A stretch of DNA of 64,000 bases from an uncultured candidatus Porisulfidus sp. (GTDB lineage Bacteria; Pseudomonadota; Gammaproteobacteria; Poriferisulfidales; Oxydemutatoraceae). Below are positions 13,616 to 34,006 of the stretch, piece by piece (position 1 is the stretch's first letter; every line of letters starts with the position of its first letter). The stretch lies in the NCBI GenBank assembly GCA_965215125.1, contig OZ244052.1, positions 864,001 to 928,000 on the forward strand, in the 5' to 3' direction. Both the position numbers and the translations under genes were made by a program. The notes below the pieces were generated by a model. That model did not search any database, was not told where the DNA came from, and saw nothing but the letters and a program-made list of their open reading frames with translations.

Positions 13616-14062
13616 TTAGCTTTGTAGATGCCCGACTGCGGCTTGCAATGCGAGTTCGTAGCCTTGCGCGCCGGCACCCGATATGACTGCGACAGCAATA
13701 TCCGACAGGAAAGACTGTCGGCGAAATGTTTCTCGAGCAAACACATTAGATAGGTGTATCTCTATGAATGGTTTAGAAACCGAGAGGAGCGCATCGCGCA
13801 GGGCGACGCTGGTATGTGTCAATGCGCCGGGATTGATAATAATAAAATCGGTTTTATCGTCCATCGTTTGGTGTATACGGTTAATAATCTCTGCCTCGGA
13901 GTTTGACTGCAAATGGTCTATCTCAATGTTGCGCTCTTTCGCTTTTGAGCGGACTTGCTCAGTAATTTGCGCTAGGGTTTGCGTGCCGTAGATCTCAGGC
14001 TCGCGCTTTCCCAGCAAATTTAGGTTGGGACCATTGATGATAAGTATCTTATTTGTTGTCAT
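13616..14062 (-). CDS. aroQ: Type II 3-dehydroquinate dehydratase
   Basis: [21 protein letters not shown]. Confidence 0.96.
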
Positions 14063-14188
14063 TGTTCATTAAATTAGGTGAAATTCGCCAAACATGTGGC
14101 TAGTAGCATAACATAATTATCCAAAATGCTAGAAATATGTTGTGCGGCACTCTGAAGAGTTAGTATCTAAAGGTTGAGGAATGCTTAA

Positions 14189-15541
14189 TTATCGCAGTGA
14201 ATCTATCAGTTGGTCTTTCAGCCTGCCAAAATCGCCATTGGACATAATCAGCAAATGGTCTCCCTCTGCTAGCTCTTCAATAATTGCATGTTTTAGCTGT
14301 GCTATATCGTTATGATACGAATACCGAGTTTTAGTTTTTTCCAATACCACTTCCGCCGACCAATCTAAATCCGGGGGGCTATAAAAGAAAAGACAGTCCG
14401 CTTCGTCAAAAGCGGCACCGAGCACTCGGTTGTGTTTACCTGCTTTCATCGTATTTGAACGTGGTTCAAAAGCAACCAATACGCGAGAGACTTTCCGGGC
14501 GCGCAATGCTTCTATGCTTGCCTTGATTTCAGTCGGATGATGGGCAAAATCATCGTAGACGGTAACTCCCTTATAGGTTCCGCAAACCTCAAGCCGACGG
14601 CGTACACCTTCAAAACTCTCTAGTGCTTGCAATGCGGTTCGGGGTGGCACACCGACATGCGCTGCGGCTGCGATTGCGCCTAAGGCATCGGCAATATTAT
14701 GATCACCCGATAGCTTCCAGCGACAACATCCTTGCTGTCTGCCTTTATGAGATAATTCAAAGCCGTCGTTGCGCTTACGCGCCTGCCAGTCGGCAGTTTT
14801 ATCCCCTGAATCAAAATACTCGCATTGCGACCAAAGTCCTTGTTCCAGAACATCTTGCAATGCGGTGTCGAAGGCGCGCACTAACACAACGGTATCCGCT
14901 GCCAGTGTTTTGAGTAAGTGATGAAACTGTGTCTTTATGGCATCTAAATCCTTAAAAATATCGGCATGGTCAAATTCTAGGTTGTTGAGCACCAAAACCT
15001 GCGGGCGATAGTGGATAAACTTCGATCTTTTATCAAAAAAAGCGGTATCGTATTCGTCGCCCTCTATAACAAACAAATCGGATTGTCCCAGGCGTGCAGA
15101 AACACCGAAGTTGATCGGCACGCCGCCGATTAGAAACCCCGGCTGCATTCCGGCAAACTCTAATATCCATGCGAGCATAGAAGCGGTCGTCGTTTTACCG
15201 TGCGTGCCGGCAACGCATAAAACTCGGCGGTATTGCAGAACCTGTTCGTAAAGCCATTGCGGTCCCGAGTAGATAGGCATACGCCGGGCTAGCAAGGCTT
15301 CCACCGACTCGTCGCCTCTACACATTGCGTTGCCGACGATATAAATATCGTAACCGTCTAGCAACGATGCACTACAAGGTTGATCCAAACCGATGTTATG
15401 GGATGCCAACTGCTCGCTCATCGGCGGCCAAGCCGCTTTATCACAGCCTTGAACAAAATAGCCGAGTTCGCGGGCAATACCCGCAAGACCCGCCATAAAA
15501 GTGCCGCATATCCCGAGTAAATAAACTTTGCCTGCAGGCAT
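14189..15541 (-). CDS. mpl: Murein peptide ligase Mpl
   Basis: GICGTFM, GTHGKTTT, DEYDTAFFDKRSKF, DDFAHHPT. Confidence 0.94.
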   Translation of the reverse strand: MPAGKVYLLGICGTFMAGLAGIARELGYFVQGCDKAAWPPMSEQLASHNIGLDQPCSASLLDGYDIYIVGNAMCRGDESVEALLARRMPIYSGPQWLYEQVLQYRRVLCVAGTHGKTTTASMLAWILEFAGMQPGFLIGGVPINFGVSARLGQSDLFVIEGDEYDTAFFDKRSKFIHYRPQVLVLNNLEFDHADIFKDLDAIKTQFHHLLKTLAADTVVLVRAFDTALQDVLEQGLWSQCEYFDSGDKTADWQARKRNDGFELSHKGRQQGCCRWKLSGDHNIADALGAIAAAAHVGVPPRTALQALESFEGVRRRLEVCGTYKGVTVYDDFAHHPTEIKASIEALRARKVSRVLVAFEPRSNTMKAGKHNRVLGAAFDEADCLFFYSPPDLDWSAEVVLEKTKTRYSYHNDIAQLKHAIIEELAEGDHLLIMSNGDFGRLKDQLIDSLR

Positions 15542-15549
15542 AGTTCAAA

Positions 15550-16113
15550 TCACATAGCCATCAACGATACGAACAAACTACTCATTAAATAGAGCATCGC
15601 AATACCAATCGCAAAAGGCAGGCGTACTTCCAATGCATGAAGAAAAATATGCCCTAAGACTCTTAACATCCATATAAACAATGCCAAATAAACCAATGCG
15701 ATTACCGCCCCGGCAGGAGAACTTTGCACCTGCGATTGAGCCTCTACGCCGAAACCGATAAGGTCGGCAGCAAAGAAGTTCAACGGTATAAACAAAACGC
15801 TAAACAAAGCGATGCTACCGGTAATCGCTATCGCAGTTTGTGTGAAACGCATAGGAAAGCGGAATAACCATAATATTACTTTCAAGAAGGCTAACAAGAA
15901 AAACAAATCTACGACGGTTTCCAACAAGTTAACTTCGGTCAAGCCTGTTGCAAGGCCCGAGAGAATGCCCATGGCAACCATAAAAGCACAAGACAAAATA
16001 AGTAATTTTCTGTATGCAGGCAGTTGTTGCGGAGTTGCCCGCAGTAGTATCAGATGCCATAGGATAACGATGAAATCCATCAATATCTCCCATAGTATTA
16101 ATATAGATCTCAT
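15550..16113 (-). CDS. Hypothetical multi-pass membrane protein
   Basis: About 5 hydrophobic segments; lies in an operon between yaaA and mpl. Confidence 0.75.
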   Translation of the reverse strand: MRSILILWEILMDFIVILWHLILLRATPQQLPAYRKLLILSCAFMVAMGILSGLATGLTEVNLLETVVDLFFLLAFLKVILWLFRFPMRFTQTAIAITGSIALFSVLFIPLNFFAADLIGFGVEAQSQVQSSPAGAVIALVYLALFIWMLRVLGHIFLHALEVRLPFAIGIAMLYLMSSLFVSLMAM

Positions 16114-16160
16114 GATTTATTCAATCCGTCGCACTCGTATCGGTAGTGGGGTTAATACAC

Positions 16161-16925
16161 TCAATCGCGCGTGAAAACCCACTGTGTTTCGTTGGATAGC
16201 TTGGTCCGGTAACGATAATTTCCTTCGCGAAACCGCTTCAGTAATTCGGGTGTCTTAATACGGTTTTTGATAATGTAGCGCGCCATCATACCTCGGGAGC
16301 GTTTGGCGGTGAAACTAATGACCTTATAGGTTCCGTTCTTTTTCTCCTTGAATATCGGCGTGATGATTTTAGCATCGAGATGATCCGGAACGATAGAATG
16401 AAAATACTCGTTGGATGCCAGGTTGATCAACACCGCATTACGCATCTTCTTAAGTTCGGCATTAATCGCTTCGGTGATGCGAGCACTCCAAAAATCGTAG
16501 AGGTCTTTGCCTTGTTTGTTTTTGAGACGGGTACCCATCTCAAGCCGATAAGGCTGTATCATATCCAACGGTTTTAAGACACCGTACAAGCCCGATAGTA
16601 TACGCAGATGCTTTTGCGCAAAATCAAAATCTTTAGCCTCAAAGCTGGTAGCATCCAAACTCGAATACACATCGCCGTCAAAGGCTAAAAGTGCCTGCTT
16701 AGCTTTGGGGGTCGTCGTAGAGTTATCCCATAGCTTAAAACGGTCGGTATTCAAATCGGCAATTTTCGTGCTGACCGACATTAACTCCTGCAGTTGCTCG
16801 GTAGATAACTTTCGCAATCGCGTAACTAAATGGTTTGCATCCTCTAAAAATAGCGGCACGCTCTGTTTGCGTATCCTATTGCTATCAAAATCAAGACGTT
16901 TCGCTGGTGAAATAATAACAATCAT
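16161..16925 (-). CDS. yaaA: Peroxide stress protein YaaA
   Basis: ISPAK, LRILSGLYG, YRLEMG, NLASNEY. Confidence 0.94.
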   Translation of the reverse strand: MIVIISPAKRLDFDSNRIRKQSVPLFLEDANHLVTRLRKLSTEQLQELMSVSTKIADLNTDRFKLWDNSTTTPKAKQALLAFDGDVYSSLDATSFEAKDFDFAQKHLRILSGLYGVLKPLDMIQPYRLEMGTRLKNKQGKDLYDFWSARITEAINAELKKMRNAVLINLASNEYFHSIVPDHLDAKIITPIFKEKKNGTYKVISFTAKRSRGMMARYIIKNRIKTPELLKRFREGNYRYRTKLSNETQWVFTRD

Positions 16926-16975
16926 AATTAATTCGTAATTTTTTTTATGCTCTTATTGTCTGCAACTCCATAACT

Positions 16976-18234
16976 GGGAATTATGTATTTAACCTGACAA
17001 GGTTTTTAGCCTTGCCATGTTCAACCATTTTTTGACGCTTCACAGACCAACAAATGTTGCAATCTCGACACCCGATAGCGGCACTCCCAGCCGCCATAAT
17101 GTTTAATGCAGCATTGATGTCCGCATTGCCCTCGTGTCCGCAGTACTGACACTTAAATATCGCTTGTGTTTTGCGGTTAGCTTTATTTACGCTTCCACAT
17201 TTATTACAGGTTTGACTCGTGTAGTGTGCCGGCACTTTCTCCACATGGGCTTTGTAGCTTAAGCATTGCTCTAGCCTACTCCAGCCACTCTTTAGTATCT
17301 CCCTGTTCAAACCTGACTTCGCCTTCACATTCTTACTCGGGCTGTCTATCGTCCCCTTCGCCGACTTCGTCATGCCTGCTGTATTCAATCCTTCCATATA
17401 AACACTATCGTATTTATCTGCTATTAGCTTGTTGGTTTGATGACTCCAATTCGCTCTCACAAATCGCTCCGCTTGATATGCGCTCTGTAGTCTATGCTTC
17501 GCTAGCTTTCGTCTATTGCTCCCCTTGACCCGTCTTGCCACCATTCGTTGATAGTGCCTACGCCTTGCTTCCTTAAGCTTTAGGTCGGGTAGGTGATATA
17601 TCGTTCCGTCCGATAATGCTATCTGTCCCACATTCCTATCCAAACCCACTTCCTTTAGCATGTGCGGTTTGTCCGCTATCTCTACTTCATAAGTGATATA
17701 AGCATACCAGTTTCCGTACTCATGCTTCACTTGACCCGATACAAACTTCTCACCTTTATACCTATCCCCACCGGCAAACTTCATCCAACCAACCTTCTGT
17801 ATGTAAATATGCTCGCCCGCTATTCGTGCTGTTTGCTTATCTATTGAAAATGAAGGATTATATGTATATCTGCTGTGAAACTTCGGCAATCCGCCATTAC
17901 CAGTAAAGAAGTTTCTATAGCTAGTTTCTATTGGTTTTAATGACATCTTCACTATATAAGCGGAATATCCTTGCAGCCACTTGTCGCAATGCTTCCGCAA
18001 AGTCGTAAATTGCTTGCCTATTGTGAAATAACTAAACCGGCTCTCCCCGTAATACTCGTACTCGTCTCTCAACTTCTCTACAAAGTGATTCCAAACATAT
18101 CGGCATGCGCCTGCAGTCCCGTGTAGCTTCTGGTGTTTCTCTTTTGTCGCCGGGTAAAGGCGATAGCGGATTGTTCTGTGGATTTTCATTGGTTTATTTT
18201 AACATTTTCTTGTCAAGTTATATGCATAATTCCG
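16976..18234 (-). mobile_element. Non-autonomous element bounded by terminal inverted repeats and carrying only tnpB
   Basis: GGAATTATGTATTTAACCTGACAAG (16977-17001) versus the reverse complement of 18209-18233, GGAATTATGCATATAACTTGACAAG: 22/25 identical; possible 3-bp ACT direct repeat. Confidence 0.7.
16981..18189 (-). CDS. tnpB: RNA-guided endonuclease TnpB
   Basis: N-terminal YRLYP...GACRYVWN; RuvC residues in GLDRN, MEGLN and NADINAALNI; zinc finger CNKC/CQYC. Confidence 0.93.
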   Translation of the reverse strand: MKIHRTIRYRLYPATKEKHQKLHGTAGACRYVWNHFVEKLRDEYEYYGESRFSYFTIGKQFTTLRKHCDKWLQGYSAYIVKMSLKPIETSYRNFFTGNGGLPKFHSRYTYNPSFSIDKQTARIAGEHIYIQKVGWMKFAGGDRYKGEKFVSGQVKHEYGNWYAYITYEVEIADKPHMLKEVGLDRNVGQIALSDGTIYHLPDLKLKEARRRHYQRMVARRVKGSNRRKLAKHRLQSAYQAERFVRANWSHQTNKLIADKYDSVYMEGLNTAGMTKSAKGTIDSPSKNVKAKSGLNREILKSGWSRLEQCLSYKAHVEKVPAHYTSQTCNKCGSVNKANRKTQAIFKCQYCGHEGNADINAALNIMAAGSAAIGCRDCNICWSVKRQKMVEHGKAKNLVRLNT

Positions 18235-18284
18235 ACTCAAGTAAATAGAATATCACCACTTGCTTCAAATGAACCGGCACTATA

Positions 18285-18412
18285 CCCGTGCAGATACGAC
18301 GGGGCTGTTGAAAAAGTATTCACGAACTGTAGGACGGTACATTCCCCTCCTGTGGAGGGGTGGCAGGCAGAGCCTGACGGGGTGGTTAATTCCCCTCCAC
18401 AGGAGGGGAATA
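18285..18412 (+). repeat. Repeat D end plus repeat A copies
   Basis: GGGGCTGTTGAAAAAGTA at 18301 followed by A units. Confidence 0.85.
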
Positions 18413-18413
18413 G

Positions 18414-20541
<2,128 letters not shown>

Positions 20542-20611
20542 TATTCTGTCCTTATAAGAATACAAAATAATAACAGTACTAAACTGTGTTAATAAATGAT
20601 AGTGTGAAAAT

Positions 20612-20642
20612 AAAAAAGAGCCGGGGATATTAAATCCCCGGC
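20612..20642 (-). terminator. Intrinsic terminator
   Basis: Minus strand GCCGGGGATTTAATATCCCCGGC followed by TCTTTTTT. Confidence 0.8.
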
Positions 20643-20730
20643 AAAGGGGTCGTGGTAATCATTACCACTTTCTAAGGAGGGTTTGACTTCCTGTCGCCGA
20701 GTTCAGGGGGGTCTCAGCAATTGATATAGT

Positions 20731-20802
20731 TTAGTCTAAATAACCCTTTCTCATGCAAAAAAATACTGTTGACCAAACTAAAACCAACATTAAAAATTCC
20801 AT
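20731..20802 (-). CDS. Putative 23-aa hydrophobic small protein MEFLMLVLVWSTVFFCMRKGYLD
   Basis: AGGAG RBS 8 nt before the ATG; upstream TTGGAA-N17-TATATT; below the ORF-track size cut-off. Confidence 0.55.
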   Translation of the reverse strand: MEFLMLVLVWSTVFFCMRKGYLD

Positions 20803-20992
20803 TTGTTTAACTCCTATATCCAAAGTACATTACATCATTTCTGTATATAAGTATATCATAATATACTTATATAGCAATACTATTCCAAGGTTTTTTTGAA
20901 AGTATTTTTTATTCTATTGATTTTACCCAATTTATAGTTATAAAAAGTGAAAGAATCAAGAAAAACTCAGTTCAATTTTTAAGTCGTATTTG

Positions 20993-22693
20993 TTAATTTC
21001 TAGTACGTTCTATGGGTTTGGTTGTGTTGGATATCACCTGTGCACCTAATTTTTTTTGCAGTGCCTGTACATTGGGATCCTCCCGAATAGATATTTCGGC
21101 ATCGTGTTGCTTTTGCCGATTTATTTTTTCATCTTCGGAAATCGGTGTTGCGTCGGGTGTGGCATATTTGAATGTTAATTCTATATCGGTGCCGTTAAGT
21201 TGTTTAAGTTTATTCAATATCTCTGTTTTGATATCTTCGGTGCATAAATTTTTAATATCGGGAGGGATTTCCATCGTTGCTTGATTATCGGACTCAATGG
21301 CTATCGACGAGTTAAGACATATTCCGAGAGCCGCACCTTTGAGTCCCGATGCTTCTACATAGTGCCGCCAGTCGTCTATGCTTTTGCAACCCAAAAGACT
21401 CTTTTGCCTTACCGGTGTGTCATGAGTGGTTAGGGAGTTGTCCGAGTTTTGTGTATTTTTGTTTGTATGAGATACTTCGGCGACGGCATCGGTCGGTGGT
21501 TCGGATTTGGGTGTAGTGGTTTTTTTAGTGCGCGCGCCCGCTTTGGGTGTAGTAGCACCTGTGGTTGCTTGGGTTTGCTTTGGCGTAGGTTGAGAGACTG
21601 ATTCTGCATGGAGCGGCACGAAACACACCATTTTCAGCAGGGTCATCTCAAAAGTAGCTTTATAATCCGAGACCACTGCCAGATCACGTTTGGCAGCCAA
21701 TGCAAACTGATAATATAATTGCGTGTCCTCCGGCTTAAGCGCGGTTGCCAGTGCAGCAACATCCGCCTCCTCAAATTGAGGCGTCAATTCGGCTTTGGGC
21801 AATGCTTGTCGCAATGCGACTTGATGTAATAAAGCAATCAACTCTCTGAGCACATCGTTAAAATCCACACCCGCTTGATAAATCTCTTCGCTCGTATCAA
21901 TCACGCCGGCTATATCCTGATCGGCAACGCGCTTGAGCAGGCTTGCAACCTGCGCTCTGGATGCGGTACCCAACATGGTCTTTACTTCTTTATCTTTAAG
22001 CGCGCCGTTTCCGTAAGAGATCGCTTGATCCAATAGGCTTAGTGCATCTCGCACACTACCGTCGGCAGCAACGGCAATTTCGTTCAGTGCATTTTCTTCA
22101 AACGCAATTTCTTCTTTGTTGAGCATTTTGGCAAGATAATCTCTAATGGCAATATAAGTCAGGCGCAATAGATTGAATTGCAAACAACGCGATAAGATCG
22201 TCACCGGTATCTTTTGCGGGTGTGTGGTTGCAAAGAAAAATTTTATATGCTCGGGTGGCTCTTCCAAAGTTTTGAGCAATGCGTTGAAGCTACTGATAGA
22301 CAACATATGCACCTCGTCTATTAGATAGATTTTATAAGTGCCGACATTCGGCGCATAGGGAACATTGTCCAGTAGCTCGCGCATGTTTTCCACACCGGTA
22401 CGCGATGCCGCATCGACCTCGATCAAATCCACATAGCGACCTGCATCGGTTTGCTCGCAGGCGGCACATTGATTACACGGGGTCGCACTGACACCCGCTT
22501 CGCAGTTAAAACATTTAGCAAGTATTCTGGCTAAAGTCGTTTTGCCTACGCCGCGCGTGCCACTGAACAAATAGGCGTGATGTAGCCGACCGAGAGATAA
22601 AGCATTTTGTAATGCTTGAACGATATGCTGTTGCCCCACGACCTCCTCAAAAGTACGCGGCCGCCATTTGCGCGCAAGAACCTGATAACTCAT
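20993..22693 (-). CDS. dnaX: DNA polymerase III subunit gamma/tau
   Basis: MSYQVLARKWRP, GTRGVGKTT, DEVHML, SRC. Confidence 0.97.
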   Translation of the reverse strand: MSYQVLARKWRPRTFEEVVGQQHIVQALQNALSLGRLHHAYLFSGTRGVGKTTLARILAKCFNCEAGVSATPCNQCAACEQTDAGRYVDLIEVDAASRTGVENMRELLDNVPYAPNVGTYKIYLIDEVHMLSISSFNALLKTLEEPPEHIKFFFATTHPQKIPVTILSRCLQFNLLRLTYIAIRDYLAKMLNKEEIAFEENALNEIAVAADGSVRDALSLLDQAISYGNGALKDKEVKTMLGTASRAQVASLLKRVADQDIAGVIDTSEEIYQAGVDFNDVLRELIALLHQVALRQALPKAELTPQFEEADVAALATALKPEDTQLYYQFALAAKRDLAVVSDYKATFEMTLLKMVCFVPLHAESVSQPTPKQTQATTGATTPKAGARTKKTTTPKSEPPTDAVAEVSHTNKNTQNSDNSLTTHDTPVRQKSLLGCKSIDDWRHYVEASGLKGAALGICLNSSIAIESDNQATMEIPPDIKNLCTEDIKTEILNKLKQLNGTDIELTFKYATPDATPISEDEKINRQKQHDAEISIREDPNVQALQKKLGAQVISNTTKPIERTRN

Positions 22694-22714
22694 TTATTTG
22701 ATGATGACAGAAAA

Positions 22715-22825
22715 GCCTCCCGCGACCGCCGATCTTCGGCACCCAGTTGCATTGCTACCGTTGCTTCCTTCCGAACCTGGCGGGGTTCACAACAAACTGC
22801 CGCGAAGGAGCCGTCGCGAAAGACC
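22715..22825 (-). ncRNA. ffs: Signal recognition particle RNA (4.5S)
   Basis: Minus strand contains CCAGGTTCGGAAGGAAGCAACGG (domain IV) in a long hairpin, in the usual position upstream of dnaX. Confidence 0.93.
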
Positions 22826-22954
22826 AGTATATTATACCGTATCTAGACCCACCGCGTCATTAATATTTCCCTCCTGTGGCGAGGAGTTGCGGAAGTGTCT
22901 GCACGAGTATAGTACTGGTTCATTTTGGCTCAAAGTGTTAAAATTGTAGGTGAG

Positions 22955-24082
22955 ATGGGTATTTCTGGGGCGGCACAAACACGCTTAAATGCGATGTTAA
23001 AAAAATTTCAGACACTGGCGCAAAGTCAGGTCGGGTACCCCTGCAATCAGAAATTCGATTATTCGGAACTATCGGTTTTTATACGCTATTGTCTGAACAA
23101 TGTCGGCGACCCCTTTCACAAAAGCAATTTTCTCAGCAACACCCACCAAATAGAACGGGAAGTTATCGCCGAGTTCGCCGACTTGATGCACCTGCCACAA
23201 GCGCAGGCATGGGGCTACGTTACGTCCGGCGGCACCGAAGGCAATATGTACGGTTTGTATTTGGGACGCGAGTTATATCCGAAGGGTGTCGTGTATTTTT
23301 CGCAAGATACGCACTACAGCATACTCAAAATTTTGCATGTGCTCAATGTGCGCAACATCATGATCAAAAGCCAAGATAACGGTGAAATAGATTACGACGA
23401 CCTTTACGAGACCATACGCATACACCGAGATGTCCCGGTAATTTTCATGGCGAATATCGGAACGACGATGAAGGGTGCGGTTGACGACTTGAGCAAGGTG
23501 CATAACATATTGAGCGATTTAACGGTCAACAATTTCTACATACATGCCGACGCTGCGTTAAGCGGCATGATCTTGGCTTTCGTCGACGACCCGCAACCCT
23601 ACGACTTTGATGCCGGCATAGACAGCATAGCAATCAGCGGTCATAAATTAATCGGTGCGCCGTTGCCGTGCGGCGTGGTGCTGACCCGCCGCGATTATGT
23701 CAACCGTATCGCCCGTGCGATTGAATATGTCGGTGTTTTAGATACTACTTTGCCGGGGTCGCGCAACGCATTAACGCCCTTGATGTTGTGGTATGCGTTT
23801 GAGAAGTACGGTCGCGCCGGCTTTAAGAGCGTAGTGGCAGACATGCTTGCGGTTGCCGAGTATGCGGTGTTGCGTTTCAACAAATTCGGTGTCAAAGCGT
23901 GGCGCAACAAAAACTCGGTCACGGTCGTCATTCCTAAACCTTCGGACACATTTCTGCACAACTGGCAAGTTGCCTCGGAAGGAGACATTGCCCATATCAT
24001 CACCATGCCCCATGTGGATCGCACGCTTGTAGACCGACTGGTGGATGAATATGTAAAAGACAGACAGACACAAGCGGCATAG
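22955..24082 (+). CDS. hdc: PLP-dependent histidine decarboxylase family enzyme
   Basis: GYPCN, NNVGDP, GGTEGN, HADAAL, SGHK (PLP lysine), GSRN. Confidence 0.85.
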   Translation: MGISGAAQTRLNAMLKKFQTLAQSQVGYPCNQKFDYSELSVFIRYCLNNVGDPFHKSNFLSNTHQIEREVIAEFADLMHLPQAQAWGYVTSGGTEGNMYGLYLGRELYPKGVVYFSQDTHYSILKILHVLNVRNIMIKSQDNGEIDYDDLYETIRIHRDVPVIFMANIGTTMKGAVDDLSKVHNILSDLTVNNFYIHADAALSGMILAFVDDPQPYDFDAGIDSIAISGHKLIGAPLPCGVVLTRRDYVNRIARAIEYVGVLDTTLPGSRNALTPLMLWYAFEKYGRAGFKSVVADMLAVAEYAVLRFNKFGVKAWRNKNSVTVVIPKPSDTFLHNWQVASEGDIAHIITMPHVDRTLVDRLVDEYVKDRQTQAA

Positions 24083-24096
24083 GGAGAACTCGTATC

Positions 24097-24489
24097 GTGA
24101 AAAGAATTATTATCATGGCCGAAAACAGGGTCGGAGTTATCGCCGACATCGGCAAAGTACTAGCCGACGATAAGATCAACATAGAGGCGTTGGATGCCGA
24201 AAGTACCGGAGACGACGGCATCGTTATATTGATGACCGATGATCCCGACGGTGCTTTACACGCATTGACATACGCCGGGTTTAAGGCAGTGAGCGACGAG
24301 GCATTGATCCTCAAATTGAAGGACGAACCGGGGGCACTCGCTAAAGTTGCCGAGCAATTCAAACAAGCCAATCTCAATATACGCAGTTTTCACATACTCG
24401 GTCGCAAAGCGGGCTATTCTATGGTTGCGTTGACTACCGACGATAGAGCAAAAGCTCAAGCACTCATAGACGACAAATACATCATATAA
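24097..24489 (+). CDS. Tandem ACT-domain protein
   Basis: ENRVGVIADI and DEPGALAKV ACT repeats. Confidence 0.85.
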   Translation: MKRIIIMAENRVGVIADIGKVLADDKINIEALDAESTGDDGIVILMTDDPDGALHALTYAGFKAVSDEALILKLKDEPGALAKVAEQFKQANLNIRSFHILGRKAGYSMVALTTDDRAKAQALIDDKYII

Positions 24490-24495
24490 ACACAT

Positions 24496-24663
24496 GGGGC
24501 TGTTGAAAAAGTATTTCATACATCATAGGGGCGGACTTGCATGTCAGCCCGTAACGCGTTATGCCTGCACGATTTATACATTCATTCATCCAATTTATGG
24601 AAACCAAAACCATACGGCGCAAACGGTTAAGTTTGTGCAAAACGGTACTTTTTCAACAGCCTC
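24496..24663. mobile_element. MITE-like element (repeat D) containing a REP-like palindrome (repeat C)
   Basis: Ends GGGGCTGTTGAAAAAGTA and TACTTTTTCAACAGCCTC, flanked by ACAT direct repeats; internal GGGGCGGACTTGCATGTCAGCCC. Confidence 0.75.
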
Positions 24664-24673
24664 ACATCACTAG

Positions 24674-25117
24674 ATGAAAAAAACGCAAGACTCGGTTGAC
24701 CCGTTTGCCGAAGTCAACCGCAACCGATCTATCCTTGAAGTGAGTATGCAAATACAAAAAATCGCACAACACTATCGTTTTGATTGGCGCAATGCAAAGG
24801 GTGTGATTGCCAAACTCTACGAGGAACTGGAAGAGATAATTGAAGCGGACACCGACACGCCCGAGCGGGAACAGCGTATTGAGGAGGAACTGGGAGACTT
24901 TTTATTTACTGCGATAAGTCTGGCTCGGCACTATTCCATAGACCCCGAGGTTGCCTTGGACGAGGCTAACCGTAAGTTTGAACGTCGCTTTGAAAAAATG
25001 GTAGAGATTATAAAGGATAACGGTTCAACTATCGGCCGTGCCACCAAAGAACAGATGGAAGATGCCTGGCACAAAGCAAAGGAACAGGAAAAAGAATCGG
25101 TTGAGGCGAACCCATAG
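24674..25117 (+). CDS. MazG-family nucleotide pyrophosphohydrolase (single domain)
   Basis: FDW, EELEE, EELGDFLF, NRKFERRF. Confidence 0.88.
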   Translation: MKKTQDSVDPFAEVNRNRSILEVSMQIQKIAQHYRFDWRNAKGVIAKLYEELEEIIEADTDTPEREQRIEEELGDFLFTAISLARHYSIDPEVALDEANRKFERRFEKMVEIIKDNGSTIGRATKEQMEDAWHKAKEQEKESVEANP

Positions 25118-25170
25118 GTTCGCCTCTGCGCAAGCGATGTTTCTTATGCTTACTTAACGCAAGTCTTGCC

Positions 25171-25692
25171 CTAAAAGGGCAGACCGTGTCCCATACCGCC
25201 GCCGATCATGCACATCAGCATCGGTATAGAAAGCAAAGTGTTGGTACGAGATGCCATCAGTGCCTTCTTCTTGGCTGTGGCTTTCTCTTCGTCGCTGGCT
25301 TGTATGCCGCCGATGCCCAATACCTTTTTCTGGTTCGGCCAAATAATGCCCCATACATTGAGCAACATAATAGTACCGAGCCATGCGCCTACGCCGATAA
25401 CCTCATAGGGCGCACTAAGCAAAAATACTTTCGTGGTGCTTCCGCCACCGTAGACAATTTCTATTGCGGCAGCACCGGTAAGCCAGGTAAGCAAGGCACC
25501 GTAACGAAACCATGCAAGTGCTCGCGGCGCAACATATTTGTTGATTGCAGCCGGGCCGGGACCGTCTTTGTCGTTCATCGCTTCGGCAACCGCCGGTACT
25601 TGTACGAAATTAAAATAATAGAGCAAACCTATCCAAATAATTCCGACGAATACGTGTAGCCACACGATTAAAGAACTCATGTTCATATCCAT
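25171..25692 (-). CDS. Urate hydroxylase PuuD-like membrane protein (Urate_ox_N domain)
   Basis: WLHVFVGIIWIGLLYYFNFVQ, NVWGIIWPNQKK, SRTNTLLSIPML. Confidence 0.8.
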   Translation of the reverse strand: MDMNMSSLIVWLHVFVGIIWIGLLYYFNFVQVPAVAEAMNDKDGPGPAAINKYVAPRALAWFRYGALLTWLTGAAAIEIVYGGGSTTKVFLLSAPYEVIGVGAWLGTIMLLNVWGIIWPNQKKVLGIGGIQASDEEKATAKKKALMASRTNTLLSIPMLMCMIGGGMGHGLPF

Positions 25693-25718
25693 AATGATAT
25701 CTCCTTATGTCCGAGACA

Positions 25719-25796
25719 CTAAAGAATTAAACTAATTATCACCGCCAAAATAAAGCCGGCGATAATTGTTCCGGTGATAGAGTCAAGTGGGTTCAT
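25719..25796 (-). CDS. Putative 25-aa single-TM peptide MNPLDSITGTIIAGFILAVIISLIL
   Basis: Strong GAGGAGG RBS; directly upstream of the PuuD-like gene. Confidence 0.6.
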   Translation of the reverse strand: MNPLDSITGTIIAGFILAVIISLIL

Positions 25797-25990
25797 AACA
25801 CCTCCTCTTTGTTAAGTGGGTTTAGCCGACGATTATATCACAACACCGTAAATTTAATATTAAGAATGAAATTGTACAAAATGATGCCAATCTACTTTTG
25901 AGAAACTAAATTCTTTATGTCAATTTCAGATATTGAGTTTATTTTTGCTTTACAATATCTAATTATTGTTTTACAGAGGAGGAATTAAAT

Positions 25991-26629
25991 ATGTACCCCA
26001 AAAAAATTTTTATTGTGCTCATTTTGGTCACGATGTTTGCCACAGGTGTCGCAGAGGCTCGGTTCGGTTCGGCACCCGAAGGTTGGCCGTGTGTACAAGG
26101 CTATGTTGCCGAAGTCTCGGCAGGTGCATTTTGGACCGGTGAATTGCCCGCTAGCGAAGCCGTAGCAAACAACGAAGCATTGATGAGATTGGTGGAGGAA
26201 GCGAGTGATAGGACTATTTCTTATGAACAAAGCCTCGATAAGATAAAGGCTTTCTTAGATCAACTTGAAGGAAGTAGCCCCGAACATAAGCAGGAACAAG
26301 CCGCCTTACTAATAGTCGCATTGACCGACTCAATCAACGGCAAACGTGTAAAAGTATTAAAAGGAATAGACCGCTTCAGTAAACGCCAACAAATGATGAT
26401 TACCCGCATAGAAGACCAAGATAACAAGATAAGGGCTATTAAAAACGGCGAAACTTCGGAGAACGGTTCGGCACTTGCAGATTTAGAGGATCGTCAAATG
26501 TGGGACATTCGTGTTTTTGAGGAGCGCGAGTTCCAGAAAAATTATCTTTGTGAACAAGCGGTTTTACTCGAACAAAGATTTTTCTTTTTAGGGCGCGATA
26601 TTGTTGCTTGGCTTGAAGACAGCGAGTAA
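25991..26629 (+). CDS. Exported hypothetical protein with WPCVQ motif, of the type seen in PQQ-dehydrogenase/Lut clusters
   Basis: Signal peptide; WPCVQ and C-terminal W..RVF...LCEQAVLLEQR; strong RBS. Confidence 0.65.
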   Translation: MYPKKIFIVLILVTMFATGVAEARFGSAPEGWPCVQGYVAEVSAGAFWTGELPASEAVANNEALMRLVEEASDRTISYEQSLDKIKAFLDQLEGSSPEHKQEQAALLIVALTDSINGKRVKVLKGIDRFSKRQQMMITRIEDQDNKIRAIKNGETSENGSALADLEDRQMWDIRVFEEREFQKNYLCEQAVLLEQRFFFLGRDIVAWLEDSE

Positions 26630-26671
26630 TTTCCGGCGTATAAAATTTATAAGCGTGTGATACCAACAGGT

Positions 26672-27160
26672 TTATTGATTGGATAGCTTGTTGGGTGGTG
26701 GGTCATCGTTTGTAACCGGAGGGCACTTTATGCTTTCAAAGCCTACTAAAGCGATATTAAATGTCGGGGTTCTTATCGGCACACGATTATCGTAAAGCCA
26801 GTTATATTGTATGTTGTAGGCTTGCACTTCTCTTGCCTTCCAAGTCAGGCAGTCGTTTTCCAGAGACGGTATGTTGTGTTTATACTGCACATAATGAACT
26901 AATTCGTGTAGCAAGATACCACGCGCTTGCATGTTGTTTTGAACATCCAGCGTATTTTTAAGATATACAGTCTCGTCTTCGTTGGAAAACCAGCCTAGTA
27001 CATTTCCGCACGACTCACCGTCGCAGGCCTTGGCTTCAATTTGCGTTTGCGGTACAAACCGAACTTCCGGAGCGGCGATTTGCGAATCGGTGATATACAT
27101 GGCAGTATTGATATATACCATCAATGCACTGACGATTGCTTGTAGTGAAGTTAACTCCAT
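26672..27160 (-). CDS. DUF6647-like protein with HELVH zincin motif
   Basis: LLHELVHYVQ, REVQAY. Confidence 0.65.
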   Translation of the reverse strand: MELTSLQAIVSALMVYINTAMYITDSQIAAPEVRFVPQTQIEAKACDGESCGNVLGWFSNEDETVYLKNTLDVQNNMQARGILLHELVHYVQYKHNIPSLENDCLTWKAREVQAYNIQYNWLYDNRVPIRTPTFNIALVGFESIKCPPVTNDDPPPNKLSNQ

Positions 27161-27173
27161 TATTCCGATTCCT

Positions 27174-27983
27174 TTATGCAGCGATTACAGGCCATTGCGA
27201 TTCGTATATTTTTTTTCTCGAATCTATCGCTTTGGCAAATAATACGTCATCGCTTTCGGTAGCTAGATAAGAAAAATCAAAGCTTGGATTCTCGCTGAAA
27301 GAGATATCACCTTCAACTGCAAACACGACTTCGTCAAGGCGATTTTTAATCTCCACCTTTTCAATATAGTGCGGAGGAATAAAAAGAAGTGTTTGCTGGT
27401 CTTTTTGTAGACCCGAGTAATTAGGATGTGTGATGACAAGATGAAGATCGCGCATTTTTGGATTGTTGGTCGCCTCGTCTTGTATCAGTTGCATTTTCCC
27501 CATAGTCAGTTTAGACATAGGGTCAACTTCCATCGGTGGCGCAGAACACCCGCCGGAAGCTTTAACAAAAGTCTTATTCATATAAAGTTTGCCGTCGTTG
27601 GTTTCCGAGACTACGCGGACATTACTATAAGTATTGACACGGATACGAGTTGATATATCTGCCGTACCGTTTTTCGGCGATAAAGAAAATTTGGCTGCGA
27701 CCGGAGACGGGTTCTCGTCGACTATCAAATGGTGGTTTTTAATAAATTTGTCTGTTTCTTGCGGAAAGCGCGAGGCAATCGTTATCGGCACATCACCGCC
27801 GTTAGGAGGACGCTCGGGTGCTATAACCGAAATCCATTGACTTCCGTCATCCACAGGACGGTCCTGAAACAGAAAATTGCGAATATCCGTCCATGCTTGT
27901 TCTTGTTCTGCCCAGACATTTCCGAACTTAGCGGCGATACCCGTTGCAGCACTATACATTAAAAATTTGCGTCTGCTAATCAT
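27174..27983 (-). CDS. Quinoprotein dehydrogenase-associated SoxYZ-like carrier
   Basis: Tat signal SRRKFL; VDENPSP; KASGGCSAP; HPNYSGLQ. Confidence 0.88.
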   Translation of the reverse strand: MISRRKFLMYSAATGIAAKFGNVWAEQEQAWTDIRNFLFQDRPVDDGSQWISVIAPERPPNGGDVPITIASRFPQETDKFIKNHHLIVDENPSPVAAKFSLSPKNGTADISTRIRVNTYSNVRVVSETNDGKLYMNKTFVKASGGCSAPPMEVDPMSKLTMGKMQLIQDEATNNPKMRDLHLVITHPNYSGLQKDQQTLLFIPPHYIEKVEIKNRLDEVVFAVEGDISFSENPSFDFSYLATESDDVLFAKAIDSRKKIYESQWPVIAA

Positions 27984-28044
27984 GTCGTTCTCCCTAATTA
28001 TGTAAAGTGAATAAAAGCCTTTTCAAGTATACCACAAATAAATA

Positions 28045-28170
28045 AAACCGCCGATTGAGCCAGTAGGTCAATCGGCGTAACTTTTTACAAAACCTGAATA
28101 TTGTGTCCATTAGGAATGTTACATATATCAAAATCAATCGGCGCGACCTCGTGCAGAACCTTAACATGGG
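28045..28170 (+). repeat. Repeat B mosaic
   Basis: ACCGCCGATTGAGCCAGTAGGTCAATCGGCGTAAC, as at 449-483. Confidence 0.8.
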
Positions 28171-28332
28171 TGTGTAGGGCCGGATATATCAAACAAAGCT
28201 ATCGCATTCTAATAGTTTGCTACAATAACTACTCGGACCCCTCTTTTGAGTCTCGCATCCGGTAGACTTAAATAATTAATAGGGGTTTCGTGAAAATATA
28301 TTTACTTTATCTTGATTAGAGGAGGAAAGATC

Positions 28333-28743
28333 ATGTTGAATAAATACTATAAAGTTTTTATAACCCTAGTTTGTGCTTCTTTGTTATCGGTTGCCTGCAT
28401 GCATTCCGACAACGAGACTATCCCGAATTTGGCCGGGGAGTGGAAAGGAGTCAATCACACTATATCCGACGCCAAAGGATATTCAGAATGGGAGAAAACA
28501 GTGACGATTAGCGAGCAGCGGGATCGTCGGTTCAAAGGCTACTTTGAATATAGCGAAGGCACTATAAACTTCTCGGGTGTGATTTTCGGTGATAACACAT
28601 CTTTTGCGTGGACATCCGAAAATAGCCAAGGCTACAATGTAGGAAGAGTACTCGGAGATAATAAAATCAGTGCGTGTTATGTAGAGTCCGGAGAGCAAGC
28701 GACCGCAGGCTGTGCCGAAATGACTCGCGCCTCCATGCCTTAA
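28333..28743 (+). CDS. Hypothetical lipoprotein
   Basis: GGAGG RBS; lipobox-like SVAC. Confidence 0.7.
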   Translation: MLNKYYKVFITLVCASLLSVACMHSDNETIPNLAGEWKGVNHTISDAKGYSEWEKTVTISEQRDRRFKGYFEYSEGTINFSGVIFGDNTSFAWTSENSQGYNVGRVLGDNKISACYVESGEQATAGCAEMTRASMP

Positions 28744-28892
28744 CGCAACAACCGAATCCGTGTGGGGCTATTGTGCAAGGGAGGGTGTTAACCCTCCCCT
28801 ACACGCATCGGGTAACGCATATTAGCAATGTCGGATTTGTAATAACTGCCTTGCATAGAATACGGTTGATATTCAAAGTGCAATGATAGGGC

Positions 28893-29882
28893 ATGAAGCG
28901 TAGAACATTTTTGAGTGTCGGGGCGAGCCTAATAATGTTGTCTATGATCGACCTAAAGCGTGGTTTTGGTTCGCCTCGACCCAAAGTCGGCATGGTCTAC
29001 GATCCGTTATTTTCCGAAGATTGGCGCGTACACGACCATCCGGAATCGCCTATGCGCTACCGGTCAATAATCGACGGTTTCGAGCAAAACGACATATTGA
29101 GGCAAACTTCAAAAATAGAATTATTAGACGAAATTGAGCCTTCATTGCTGACGGTACATAATAAAAAACATATTGATACGATTAGAAAATTTTATGTTTA
29201 TGCGCACGATGTTGCGTCGGCAGCGGTTGGTGCCGGATTGGCTGCTGTCGACGCAGTTTGTAGCGGTACGCACAATAGCGTTTTTTGTGCCGTACGCCCG
29301 CCGGGTCATCACGCCTTAAATACCGGCCGGGAGGAAGGCTTTTGTTTTTATAACAATGTTGCCGTCGCCGCGCGTTATGCACAAAACAAATATAAGCGTA
29401 AGAAAGTCTTAATCGTAGACTGGGATTACCATCACGGCAACGGTACGGAGGCAGTATTTTACGAGGATCCGTCGGTGCTTTTTTTCTCCACACACGATTA
29501 TCGCGCTTATCCGGGAACCGGAAATCCGACCAGAGTCGGTGCCGATAAAGGCAAAGGATACAATATCAATGTGCATTTGGATTGTGGCGCAAACGATGAG
29601 GATATTATCAATGCATTCAACGACATATTGATTCCTGCTGCGCACCGCTTCAAACCCGACTTGATATTGATATCGGCAGGATTTGATAGTCGCAAAGACG
29701 ATTTATTGGGTTGCTTCGACATTAGCGACGAGGGTTTTGCTCGGTTGACGCATATCGTGCGTAATCTTGCAGACGAATACTGCGACGGATGTATGGTATC
29801 ATTACTGGAAGGGGGGTATAGTTTATCGGGACTGGCAAATGCCACGGTCGCACACCTGAAAGCGATGCTCGATATGTCCTGA
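28893..29882 (+). CDS. Histone deacetylase family (Zn-dependent) enzyme with a twin-arginine signal
   Basis: HPESP, RPPGHHA, GFC, DWDYHHGNGT, SAGFD, LEGGY; N-terminal KRRTFL. Confidence 0.9.
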   Translation: MKRRTFLSVGASLIMLSMIDLKRGFGSPRPKVGMVYDPLFSEDWRVHDHPESPMRYRSIIDGFEQNDILRQTSKIELLDEIEPSLLTVHNKKHIDTIRKFYVYAHDVASAAVGAGLAAVDAVCSGTHNSVFCAVRPPGHHALNTGREEGFCFYNNVAVAARYAQNKYKRKKVLIVDWDYHHGNGTEAVFYEDPSVLFFSTHDYRAYPGTGNPTRVGADKGKGYNINVHLDCGANDEDIINAFNDILIPAAHRFKPDLILISAGFDSRKDDLLGCFDISDEGFARLTHIVRNLADEYCDGCMVSLLEGGYSLSGLANATVAHLKAMLDMS

Positions 29883-29983
29883 CTAACTGTGCTCGGTGCC
29901 CTTTTCATTGATATATCCGACTGCCAAACACAGCTACAATGAGGAAATAGTACCGACTTTATAACACTGATAAAGGAGTAAAG

Positions 29984-31681
29984 ATGAGTAGTTTTTTTTC
30001 AAAGGAGCGGATTGTAGCCGAGGAAGGGTTTAATCGCTGGCGCGTGCCACCGGCATCGATTGCGATACACCTTTGCATCGGTTCGGTCTATGCGTGGAGT
30101 ATTTACAATCCTGCATTGACGAAAGTCGTCGGTGTCGTCGCCAGTTCCGCCGACGATTGGACCTTAACCGAAGTCGTCTGGATTTTCACCGTTGCTATTC
30201 TGGTTTTGGGGCTTGCTGCGGCGTTTGCCGGCAAATGGCTCGAGGAAGTCGGGCCGCGCACGGTCGGTATTGTCGCCGCCTTTTGCTGGGGCGGCGGTTA
30301 TGTAGTAGGCAGTCTGGGCATCTATCTGAATCAAGTATGGTTACTTTATCTCGGCTATGGCGTGATCGGGGGATGCGGTTTAGGTTTGGGTTATGTATCG
30401 CCGGTTAGTACTTTGATCCGCTGGTTTCCCGACCGGCGCGGTATGGCAACCGGAATGGCAATTATGGGTTTCGGCGGCGGCGCAATGCTGGGAACGCCCT
30501 TGAAAGAATATTTCCTTCAAAAATTTTACCGTGCACCCGAATATTTAGGCTCAATCGATAGTTTGGATTTGATTACCGAAGCCGGTAGACGTTTCGTGCA
30601 GATAGGCGGCGAATTAAAAGAAGTGGTGGTGGTCGGTGCAAACGAAGTTTCCGGCATGATCGTTCCGGGAGATCCCGGTGTCTATCTACTCGGCACAGGT
30701 TCGGTCGGTGCATGGCAGACATTTTTATTTATCGGTTTAATTTATTTTATTGTGATGCTGATCGCAGCGTTGAGCTATCGTATTCCGCGCGAGGGTTGGA
30801 CTCCCGAAGGTTGGACACCACCGAGTAAATCCGTTTCCGATAAGAAAATGATAACGCAAGGCAATGTGGACATAGACCAGGCATTGAAGACACCACAATT
30901 CTATCAACTATGGATCGTCTTATGTTTCAATGTCACCGCCGGTATCGGTGTTATCGGCGTTGCCAAGACGATGATTACCGACATCTTCGGTTCCGCTTTG
31001 CCGGGCATAGTAGACGGTGCTTTTGCCGCAACCTATGTCTTGATGATCAGCGTGTTTAATATGATCGGCAGAGTATTGTGGGCAGGTTCGTCCGATTTTA
31101 TCGGACGCAAGAATACCTATTGGATATTTTTTGTCGGAGGTATATTACTTTATTTGTCTATCCCGTTTGCCGCACAACAAGTGAGTGTTCATCCTACGGT
31201 ATTTTGGTTGGTATTTTTCTATGCGGCAACGATGATTATATTCACCTTCTACGGCGGTGGTTTCGCAACCATTCCCGCCTACTTGGCGGATATTTTCGGC
31301 ACCCATCATGTCGGTGGCATCCACGGTAGACTACTAACCTCATGGAGCACCGCCGGCGTATTAGGGCCGCTTGCTATTACCACTTTGCGGCAAAACTCAC
31401 TCAGCAATTCAATTCACGAGTTGGCTGCCAAAGTGGATCCGGCAAAATTTGCCGAAACCTTCGGGGCAGGAATTGATAAACTGGACTTATTGATTGAAAA
31501 AAAGACCGTAACGCTCGCCAAGTTGCTCGAAATCTCGCCGCCGGGAACCGTGGACCCCACACCCAGCCTATATAATACGACGATGTATTTGATGGCGTTT
31601 CTGCTACTTCTAGCATTGATATCAAATGCGCTTATGAAGCCGGTGCATCCCAAGCATCACATCAATGACGGGAAAACATAG
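29984..31681 (+). CDS. OFA-family MFS transporter (oxalate/formate antiporter-like)
   Basis: IHLCIGSVYAWS, WFPDRRGMATG, YGGGFATIPAYLAD. Confidence 0.88.
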   Translation: MSSFFSKERIVAEEGFNRWRVPPASIAIHLCIGSVYAWSIYNPALTKVVGVVASSADDWTLTEVVWIFTVAILVLGLAAAFAGKWLEEVGPRTVGIVAAFCWGGGYVVGSLGIYLNQVWLLYLGYGVIGGCGLGLGYVSPVSTLIRWFPDRRGMATGMAIMGFGGGAMLGTPLKEYFLQKFYRAPEYLGSIDSLDLITEAGRRFVQIGGELKEVVVVGANEVSGMIVPGDPGVYLLGTGSVGAWQTFLFIGLIYFIVMLIAALSYRIPREGWTPEGWTPPSKSVSDKKMITQGNVDIDQALKTPQFYQLWIVLCFNVTAGIGVIGVAKTMITDIFGSALPGIVDGAFAATYVLMISVFNMIGRVLWAGSSDFIGRKNTYWIFFVGGILLYLSIPFAAQQVSVHPTVFWLVFFYAATMIIFTFYGGGFATIPAYLADIFGTHHVGGIHGRLLTSWSTAGVLGPLAITTLRQNSLSNSIHELAAKVDPAKFAETFGAGIDKLDLLIEKKTVTLAKLLEISPPGTVDPTPSLYNTTMYLMAFLLLLALISNALMKPVHPKHHINDGKT

Positions 31682-31741
31682 GGTATACTAATGAGTTTGT
31701 TTTGGTTCAATACACGATAATTTACGAGGAGAAAAAACGAT

Positions 31742-32254
31742 ATGATGTTTATCAATAGCAAAGAACAACTTAAAAATATCTGCCGTTGCTTGATAGCGAA
31801 CCGCGGATTACTCATCGCAATATTTGCAGCCGGCGTACTGAGTTCACCGGCGGTTTCCGATGACCTTGCAAAAGGCGAAAAAACTTTTATCAAGTGCAAA
31901 GTATGTCACGCGGTGGAGAAGGATGTAAGCAAAATAGGTCCTAGCTTGCATGGTGTCTTCGGACGCAAAGCGGGAAGTTTGGAAAGTTTTCCGAACTATT
32001 CCGATGCAATCAAATCGACCGATATAGTTTGGGGAGATGAGACCATACGCGAATTCGTAAAGGCACCGCGCACTTATATCGCCGGTACAAAAATGATTTT
32101 TATAGGTATCAAAGACGATAAGGTGATAGATGACTTATTGGCTTATCTAAAATCGGTCACAGGTGCCGAAACCGGTTCCGAGACTTCCGATACCGAGACC
32201 TCGGATGCCGGCTCCGCCGCCGAGATGTCTCCGACCGAAGCGACTGTAGAATAG
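31742..32254 (+). CDS. Cytochrome c2-like class I cytochrome c
   Basis: CKVCH, GPSLHGVFGRKAG, GTKM. Confidence 0.9.
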   Translation: MMFINSKEQLKNICRCLIANRGLLIAIFAAGVLSSPAVSDDLAKGEKTFIKCKVCHAVEKDVSKIGPSLHGVFGRKAGSLESFPNYSDAIKSTDIVWGDETIREFVKAPRTYIAGTKMIFIGIKDDKVIDDLLAYLKSVTGAETGSETSDTETSDAGSAAEMSPTEATVE

Positions 32255-32271
32255 TTTTTTATTACTTAAAG

Positions 32272-32590
32272 TTAATTCCCCTCCTGTGGAGGGGTGGCAG
32301 GCGCAATAGAACCGCCGTTTGTTGCAAATAATCGTTCCTTGTTGCAGTAGCACAAGGAACATCACCTTATACAAGATTCAGCTATTTATGGCTGTTAGAA
32401 ATAATACGAATAGCAAAGACAAACGGCGTGACATTGTGCAGAACCATAGCATATATACAAAATGTATGCCTTTTCATGGGGTGGTTGCTAAGGGTCTGTA
32501 CAAGGTGCAGTGTCGGTACATTCCCCTCCTTCGGAGGGGTGGCAGGCGTAGCCTGACGGGGTGGTTGTGTGGTATCTGTACCAGTTAATT
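32272..32590 (+). repeat. Mosaic of repeat A, long-form repeat B and repeat A
   Basis: 32294-32444 is nearly identical to 51581-51731. Confidence 0.88.
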
Positions 32591-32608
32591 CCCTCCCTGA
32601 TTTTTTCA

Positions 32609-33145: not shown

Positions 33146-33174
33146 AATATTGTGCTAATAGCATTGATATAGGT

Positions 33175-33999: not shown

Positions 34000-34006
34000 C
34001 GCTATC

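Follow-up and report, generated by a model that had tools for sequence, protein, structure and literature searches.

Positions 16976 to 18234 of a 64,000-nt stretch of DNA (the window) from contig OZ244052.1 (GCA_965215125.1) of an uncultured candidatus Porisulfidus sp., whose genome is a single contig of 2.22 Mb and 99% complete, are very probably a non-autonomous insertion sequence (IS), in which terminal inverted repeats (TIRs) of the IS1595 family enclose a tnpB gene and an embedded scaffold of its guide RNA (omegaRNA), and which would be moved in trans by IS1595-family transposases. Its parts are listed below, with the ends of the element named in the sense of tnpB and the two ACT copies by their place in the window:

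16976..18234, no strand: the whole non-autonomous element, 1,259 bp, delimited by the end of homology with four other copies in the genome and by the empty site in three congeners
16976..17001, no strand: right-end inverted repeat (at the tnpB 3' end), with the outer sequence GGGAATTATGTATTTAACCTGACAAG, of whose 24 outer nucleotides 23 are those of the TIR of L089, an autonomous IS1595-family IS
18209..18234, no strand: left-end inverted repeat (5' of tnpB), whose outermost base is C, not G, in the tnpB sense
16981..18189, minus strand: tnpB, 402 aa, with RuvC residues D184/E266/D357 and a C4 zinc finger, its stop codon within the right repeat
16973..16975, no strand: ACT, left copy of a 3-bp direct repeat, seen in the flank sequence and the congener empty sites
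18235..18237, no strand: ACT, right copy of the same repeat, on the same evidence

As the original prediction had it, tnpB is tightly bracketed by 25-nt inverted repeats (arms 16977-17001 and 18209-18233, 88% complementary, 22/25), the next-best inverted pair spanning the gene being one of 19 nt at 74%. The TAA stop codon (16981-16983) falls within the right repeat at a distance of 5 nt from the element end, and tnpB is the sole gene between the ends, with neither a tnpA nor any other transposase gene; the DDE_Tnp_IS1595 transposase is not encoded within the element, and the two copies that the genome has of it sit elsewhere. Four further full copies of the element are present in the genome, with 78-82% DNA identity to the window copy, and their homology to a query taken from window 16900-18300 covers query positions 76-1334 (window 16975-18233); it therefore stops within one base of the repeat ends, indicating that the inverted repeats are the true ends of the element and more than a chance pairing. 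A search of the genome with the end sequences (up to 6 mismatches), a check proposed together with the prediction, returned 14 sites that form seven inward-facing pairs: five full elements, one internally deleted copy of 586 bp and one deleted copy split by another IS. The copies other than that of the window end exactly at their inverted repeats, not at hairpin ends of the IS200/IS605 type, and they are flanked by 8-bp direct repeats, such as CACTCATT and TATTAGTT (8/8). The latter belongs to the 586-bp copy (G000:C1:1627104-1627691), which still has both repeats, with ~210 nt from the start of the element and ~410 nt from its end, the latter including the whole omegaRNA-like region described below; it is a possible guide-RNA-only miniature element. 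The split copy (G000:C1:965778-967676) is interrupted by an unrelated insertion with a 295-aa open frame, taken for an IS3-type integrase by eye, without a family search.

Empty sites were found in related genomes for two of the five insertions. The spacer between yaaA and tgt, where the window copy sits, is uninterrupted in three congeners (G003, G001 and G004), reading CTATAACTCAAGTCAATAG with position 16975 joined to 18235 and ACT present once, so that the ACT duplication suspected from the flanks alone is borne out. The empty site of copy c4 is present in 4/4 congeners with TAGCTAAT once, where this genome has TAGCTAAT and TCGCTAAT on either side of the element. Both of these insertions are therefore found in this genome only. 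A clean empty site was not found for c3 or c5, whose flanks are not adjacent in the congeners. On the other hand, copy c2 (L033, in this genome, G000) and one copy of congener G003 (L050) have identical flanks and the same duplication (AATGAGTG, tnpB sense), so that this insertion predates the split of the two species. Contigs from four DNA runs cover both junctions of the window copy, and no joint across the whole element was found in them; a single internal joint, from 17104 to 17933, occurs in the contigs of two runs, is similar in form to the 586-bp deleted copy and seems to come from an internally deleted copy at a different locus. A perfect hairpin with 20-nt arms (ATTCCCCTCCTGTGGAGGGG / CCCCTCCACAGGAGGGGAAT) lies close by at 18341-18411, to the right of the element; the summed contig depth over 18276-18423 is 14,000-34,000, versus ~150-250 alongside (two DNA runs), indicating that this hairpin belongs to a very abundant dispersed repeat.

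The same ends were followed in relatives. Seventy-four loci (from 14 genomes and a few named contigs, with protein identities of 42-100%) were reduced to 57 distinct elements after removing 8 loci without a clear TIR pair, 1 for which anchoring failed and 8 that repeated an insertion already counted; these elements come from related genomes, and the statistics drawn from them overstate their independence. An 8-bp target duplication is perfect in 26 of the 57 and matches at 7/8 positions in 11 more, and in 35/57 the stop codon of tnpB lies 5 nt from the element end.

The partner that these ends point to is a group of full-length IS1595-family elements. Among 51 IS1595 loci of the lineage there are 21 distinct elements with GGGAATTAT-type TIRs, 18 of which have 8/8 duplications. 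One of them (L248), a 1,276-bp IS in congener G004, has the ends of genome copy c2 (26/26 on the left, 24/24 on the right); another (L089), a 1,382-bp IS present in at least 8 copies in a genome of the sister genus (G006), matches the right end of the window copy at 23/24. These are the transposase-bearing elements (PF12762, NF033547) with the same TIRs that the prediction had called for. Outside the 24-26 nt of the TIRs, the TnpB elements share nothing with L248 or L089, so that they are IS1595-type shells with a different cargo. The ends GGGAATTAT also fit ggnnatTAT, the end motif of the ISNwi1 subgroup; the placement near ISNwi1/ISNha5, proposed in the prediction on the basis of such end motifs, is tentative. 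Matches to PF12762 occur in 25 of 41 related genomes (17/17 with TnpB, three of them fragments only, and 8/24 without), a co-occurrence that is descriptive only, as these genomes are kin. The genome itself carries two near-identical ISs of 1,294 bp (99.8% over 1,297 aligned nt), each with a 308-aa IS1595-family transposase (PF12762 134 bits, NF033547 187 bits) and with ends GGGACTTATAGCGATTAGTTGACAAA, one of the two copies having a perfect 8-bp duplication. Annotated plasmid relatives of the transposase are named only 'IS1595 family transposase' and reach at most 39% identity. Taken at the level of the family, the shared ends and the 8-bp duplications thus support the proposal that the element is a non-autonomous TIR element mobilised in trans by a DDE transposase.

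Two further features of these transposase-bearing elements were recorded. In L248, L252 and L089 a second, inward AACTTGACA lies ~45-55 nt from the left end; the TnpB elements do not have it, and it is perhaps an additional transposase binding site. A 753-bp IS1595-type IS with many copies in a congener was considered as a partner and rejected because its ends differ (GGTACTTGACTAG...); it encodes a 226-aa transposase, has the ends GGTACTTGACTAGTTTAGGGA and is represented by L273-L277 in G003 and L278-L279 in G001, the five loci fetched from G003 being 99.9-100% alike, with 8 bp repeated in 3/4 of the flank pairs read by eye.

The 402-aa protein is a TnpB of standard architecture. It matches the Pfam families HTH_OrfB_IS605 (E 2.1e-10), OrfB_IS605 (E 9.9e-8) and Cas12f1-like_TNB (E 8.8e-18), that is, the helix-turn-helix, RuvC and zinc-ribbon parts, all above their cut-offs, as well as the NCBIfam model guided_TnpB (NF040570; 187 bits, cut-off 100). 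The RuvC acidic residues and the zinc finger, which the prediction had reported as retained, are D184 (GLDRN), E266 (YMEGLN) and D357 (NADINAA), in the canonical D-E-D order, and C328/C331/C347/C350; both sets are kept in 5/5 genome copies. All five copies are open over 397-405 aa, with mutual protein identities of 74-94%, and the ratio of nonsynonymous to synonymous substitution rates (dN/dS) is 0.14-0.19 in 9/10 pairs and 0.41 in the closest pair, values from which tnpB appears to be under purifying selection in the five intact copies.

Such a protein would also be expected from an ordinary tnpB-only element of the IS200/IS605 type (IS1341-type), moved by a Y1 TnpA and with ends that merely resemble inverted repeats. 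This alternative is favoured by the alignment of the window TnpB from end to end with solved structures of ISDra2 TnpB (E 2.7e-23), by its match to IS200_TnpB (NF038281; 164 bits, under the cut-off of 425) and by the closest plasmid TnpBs (34-36% identity), which bear classic IS200/IS605 subterminal hairpins, so that the contrast in end type lies within the protein family. It is already contradicted, and hardly tenable, in view of the 8-bp duplications in 37/57 elements, the single-copy targets in the empty sites and the TIRs identical to those of IS1595 ISs. In addition, the Y1 transposase profile (PF01797) had no match in the complete genome, although it matched 6/14 control genomes, and the serine recombinase profile (PF00239), which matched 12/14 controls, had none either; outer boundaries with subterminal hairpins, the arrangement that would have spoken for such a transposase, are not those of the copies, which end at the repeats.

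The last part of tnpB appears to have a second function. The relevant features, all on the strand of the gene, are:

16977..17131, minus strand: omegaRNA-like conserved fold, inside the tnpB 3' end and running to the element terminus, predicted by RNAalifold on 24 relatives
17032..17041, minus strand: conserved box GAAGCGTCAA, the 3' arm of a conserved stem, nearly invariant over the 24 relatives (42-100% protein identity)
16956..16975, minus strand: host flank, the putative guide if an omegaRNA reads out of the right end, inferred from its position and by analogy with the omegaRNA of TnpB

RNAalifold, applied to an alignment of the last 190 nt of 24 elements, predicted six helices with 29 pairs in total, and compensatory changes occur at 11 of these pairs. 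On the consensus structure 98.3% of cells are paired, and shifting the partners by 1-3 columns lowers this to 33-44%. The covariation score is 0.411, versus at most 0.104 with shifted partners, and 0/500 shuffles reach the observed score. Structure and figures come from one alignment, so that the figures lean towards the structure. Some of the compensations alter encoded amino acids (for example GCGG/CCGC versus GCCU/GGGC), suggesting a constraint on the RNA. Furthermore, the 16 nt after GAAGCGTCAA are predicted to pair with the variable inner part of the right TIR of the same element (mean -5.9 kcal/mol) more strongly than with the TIRs of other subfamilies (mean -2.8 kcal/mol; 47/57 elements, those with the box), suggesting that left repeat, right repeat and RNA arm change together. 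The last ~155 nt of tnpB are thus read, from comparative sequence analysis, as an omegaRNA-like fold supported by covariation, with the right inverted repeat taking part in its last hairpin; an expressed omegaRNA, its 3' end and its guide are predictions. An Rfam scan of 16500-18700 (E up to 5) matched no omegaRNA family and gave only two spurious matches to microRNA models.

The flanks of the insertions show an asymmetry that bears on a possible target-adjacent motif (TAM). In the 37 elements with a duplication of at least 7/8, read in the tnpB sense, the left duplication is directly preceded by a purine in 36/37 (22 G and 14 A, against 1 T and no C); one position further out C occurs once, and at the third position T does not occur. 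On the right side, 16/37 have a purine at the mirrored position, and in 18 autonomous ISs that have these ends and 8/8 duplications a purine is found in 9/18 on one side and 5/18 on the other (14/36 in all; Fisher's test of 36/37 versus 14/36, p = 2.6e-8). All eight elements fetched after the idea was formed have the purine (one only after a one-base shift of its end), and the empty sites of copy c4 already have it, indicating that it is a property of the target. When the base is A it is usually part of TA, and this form occurs only within a single TnpB clade (17 rows), while G predominates in the remaining 20 rows, in a quick, midpoint-rooted tree whose careful search is unfinished. Since the bias is tied to the orientation of tnpB and is absent from the tnpB-free ISs, it is what a TAM would leave, and the purine looks like a short TAM; a very short one would suit a transposase that inserts almost anywhere.

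The bias could instead reflect a target preference of the transposase, or base composition, an explanation that is considered rather unlikely. Characterised TAMs are longer than the one to three positions biased here, and the duplications are AT-rich, so the transposase does have preferences. However, a preference of this kind would have to account for a bias that is one-sided and missing from the 18 autonomous ISs, and for TA and G variants that follow the TnpB tree.

From the ends, duplications, copies and empty sites, the ends in common with transposase-bearing ISs, the purifying selection, the RNA covariation and the asymmetric flank motif, we infer a scheme that involves mobilisation in trans, RNA expression, a guide, a TAM role and homing. 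Transposases of the full-length ISs of the lineage would recognise the common GGGAATTAT...TTGACA ends, make the 8-bp duplications and mobilise the TnpB element in trans. The right repeat would be bound by the transposase and would also supply the 3' arm of the terminal omegaRNA hairpin. An RNA transcribed past the right end would carry the 8-bp duplication and the adjacent host DNA as its guide; an empty target would then read purine (TAM), 8-bp target, flank, and the TnpB-omegaRNA complex could cut unoccupied copies of the insertion site, which would favour retention of the element or its copying by repair. A broader interpretation, put forward tentatively as plausible but not favoured over its negation, is that a TnpB system has been refitted to a DDE transposon: the TIRs and the RNA arm would co-evolve because of the double use of the right repeat as transposase site and last omegaRNA stem, the guide would start with the variable 8-bp duplication, the TAM would have shrunk to a purine or TA just outside the duplication, and only insertions beside such a base would keep a homing guide and persist.

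Besides the kinship of the sampled elements and the shared RNA alignment already mentioned, several observations weigh against these interpretations. Some of them concern the window copy, which has only 3 bp (ACT) duplicated, the 8-bp duplication typical of the family being absent, as had been noticed in the prediction; a loss of 5 bp beside one end, if it occurred, would explain this. Its motif position (18246, tnpB sense) is T and not a purine; the corresponding position is G in the three congener empty sites (L045-L047), and the putative TAM base may have mutated after insertion. Its terminal pairing is weak (-2.5 kcal/mol), and folding of its 3' 177 nt as a single sequence gives no stability beyond that of shuffles (z -1.42). 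With a TIR of 22/25, 3 bp duplicated and 74-78% protein identity to its sisters, the window copy is an old and somewhat worn member of the group. In the wider sample the duplication matches at 6/8 or less in 20/57 elements, and a minus-strand promoter scan found no sigma-70-like promoter upstream of tnpB. The benefit of homing is also less obvious than for IS200/IS605, because DDE excision normally leaves a break and not a resealed target. Finally, the ends of the resident IS1595 elements match the TIR consensus of the TnpB elements at only ~20/25 (by eye), and the genome copies are 18-22% diverged in DNA, which makes the current mobility of the TnpB elements in this genome doubtful.

These last two points also favour the view that the copies of this genome are stranded relics without a cognate transposase, in which tnpB is kept for a use by the host or by other elements, like domesticated TnpB-like regulators; the c2 insertion, common to a congener with identical flanks, would fit it as well, and the dN/dS among the copies is nevertheless ~0.15. 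This view is improbable, given that the catalytic residues are all intact in the TnpB copies, unlike those of the known domesticated TnpB-like forms, in which not all of them are, and given the multiple copies, the internally deleted derivatives and the species-specific insertions. Moreover, the omegaRNA-like fold and the TIRs are conserved too, an indication that selection acts on the element itself.

TnpBs within DDE transposons, and solo TnpBs moved in trans, are already published. Six DDE-linked TnpB branches (DDE-1 to DDE-6), all with inverted terminal repeats, have been described (Altae-Tran et al. 2023, PNAS; PMC10691335); as a rule no more than 250 bp separate the tnpB 3' end from that of the transposon, and solo TnpBs that have the same ends were proposed to be mobilised in trans. 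The element of the window resembles them in having TnpB between TIRs, its 3' end near the transposon end and no transposase of its own, and its TnpB clade may already be in the data sets of that study. The supplementary information of the same work reports, for DDE-5, a TA motif located 8 bp upstream of the end; this branch is among those with rearranged catalytic sites, whereas the window TnpB has the canonical D-E-D. The available portions of its text name only IS630 (for DDE-6), IS1595 appearing in a supplementary list of transposase profiles, and a 2026 review (PMC13565253) gives, in the part available, ISL2, IS630 and IS1031 as DDE partners and treats the rarity of the TnpB-DDE pairing as an open point. 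The claim of a little-described new partnership made in the original prediction thus needs to be narrowed: DDE-linked and solo TnpBs were known, whereas a partnership with IS1595 is not named in the literature searched. What is added here is a partner from the IS1595 family whose ends are identical, a predicted double role of the right repeat and a one-sided purine resembling a minimal TAM.

The IS1595 family is marked by GG termini and 8-bp duplications (PMC8101967, summarising Siguier et al. 2009, as far as seen), and the TnpB elements share the GG-starting repeats, the duplications and ends identical to those of transposase-bearing members of the lineage; the cargo of IS1595 is its own DDE_Tnp_IS1595 transposase, in contrast to tnpB here. 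IS200/IS605 elements lack inverted repeats and target duplications, bear subterminal hairpins and depend on a Y1 TnpA, according to the consulted part of PMC13565253; their IS1341-type members share with this element the protein family and size and an omegaRNA scaffold (a predicted one here) within the last part of the gene, and differ from it in their hairpin ends, in place of which the TnpB elements have 25-nt TIRs and 8-bp duplications. IS607 differs in its serine recombinase TnpA, of which none was found in this genome. A parallel in organisation is Fanzor, the eukaryotic TnpB, which the portions seen of PMC10711439 and PMC3627910 describe as cargo of cut-and-paste transposons with TIRs and target-site duplications, the TIR being part of the guide-RNA scaffold. 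Both cases have an RNA-guided nuclease as transposon cargo and a TIR in the guide-RNA scaffold (predicted in the present one); unlike it, Fanzor is eukaryotic or viral and has a short fixed duplication in the scaffold, in place of the variable 8-bp duplication with which the guide would start here.

Protein relatives with more than 50% identity are numerous, almost all of them from metagenome assemblies. A plasmid search for close relatives of the TnpB gave none above 36% identity, and a search of metagenomes with the protein as query gave three weak matches, all unrelated. Among 400 genomes sampled evenly from the class, G418 is the only one outside the order that has close TnpB relatives; these have the same ends, and 1/2 copies has a perfect duplication. 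The DNA pattern GAAGCGTCAA-N25-55-TARTTCCC occurs in at least 118 stretches of 596 Gb; 11 of the 80 loci fetched encode TnpB and come from records of Gammaproteobacteria, Proteobacteria, Chromatiales, Candidatus Porisulfidus or Candidatus Oxydemutator, and 69 are chance matches, which ~18 specified bases would be expected to give in a collection of that size. The pattern is therefore too loose and says little about spread outside the lineage.

Bacterial TnpB has usually been described together with IS200/IS605 or IS607 transposases, whose excision leaves no scar, and its homing role is less obvious for DDE transposons. The lineage studied here is a compact natural case of the latter, with dozens of independent insertions and matching autonomous and non-autonomous partners, and it also offers a covarying putative guide-RNA scaffold that overlaps the transposase binding site and a one-sided flank motif open to a direct test as a TAM. 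If the refitting of TnpB to a DDE transposon is true, it would provide the first sequence-level evidence that TnpB activity filters the sites at which DDE-mobilised elements survive, and it would point to compact TnpBs with very permissive TAMs; if the TAM is a single purine, these would be 400-aa nucleases with unusually loose targeting, of relevance to genome editing.

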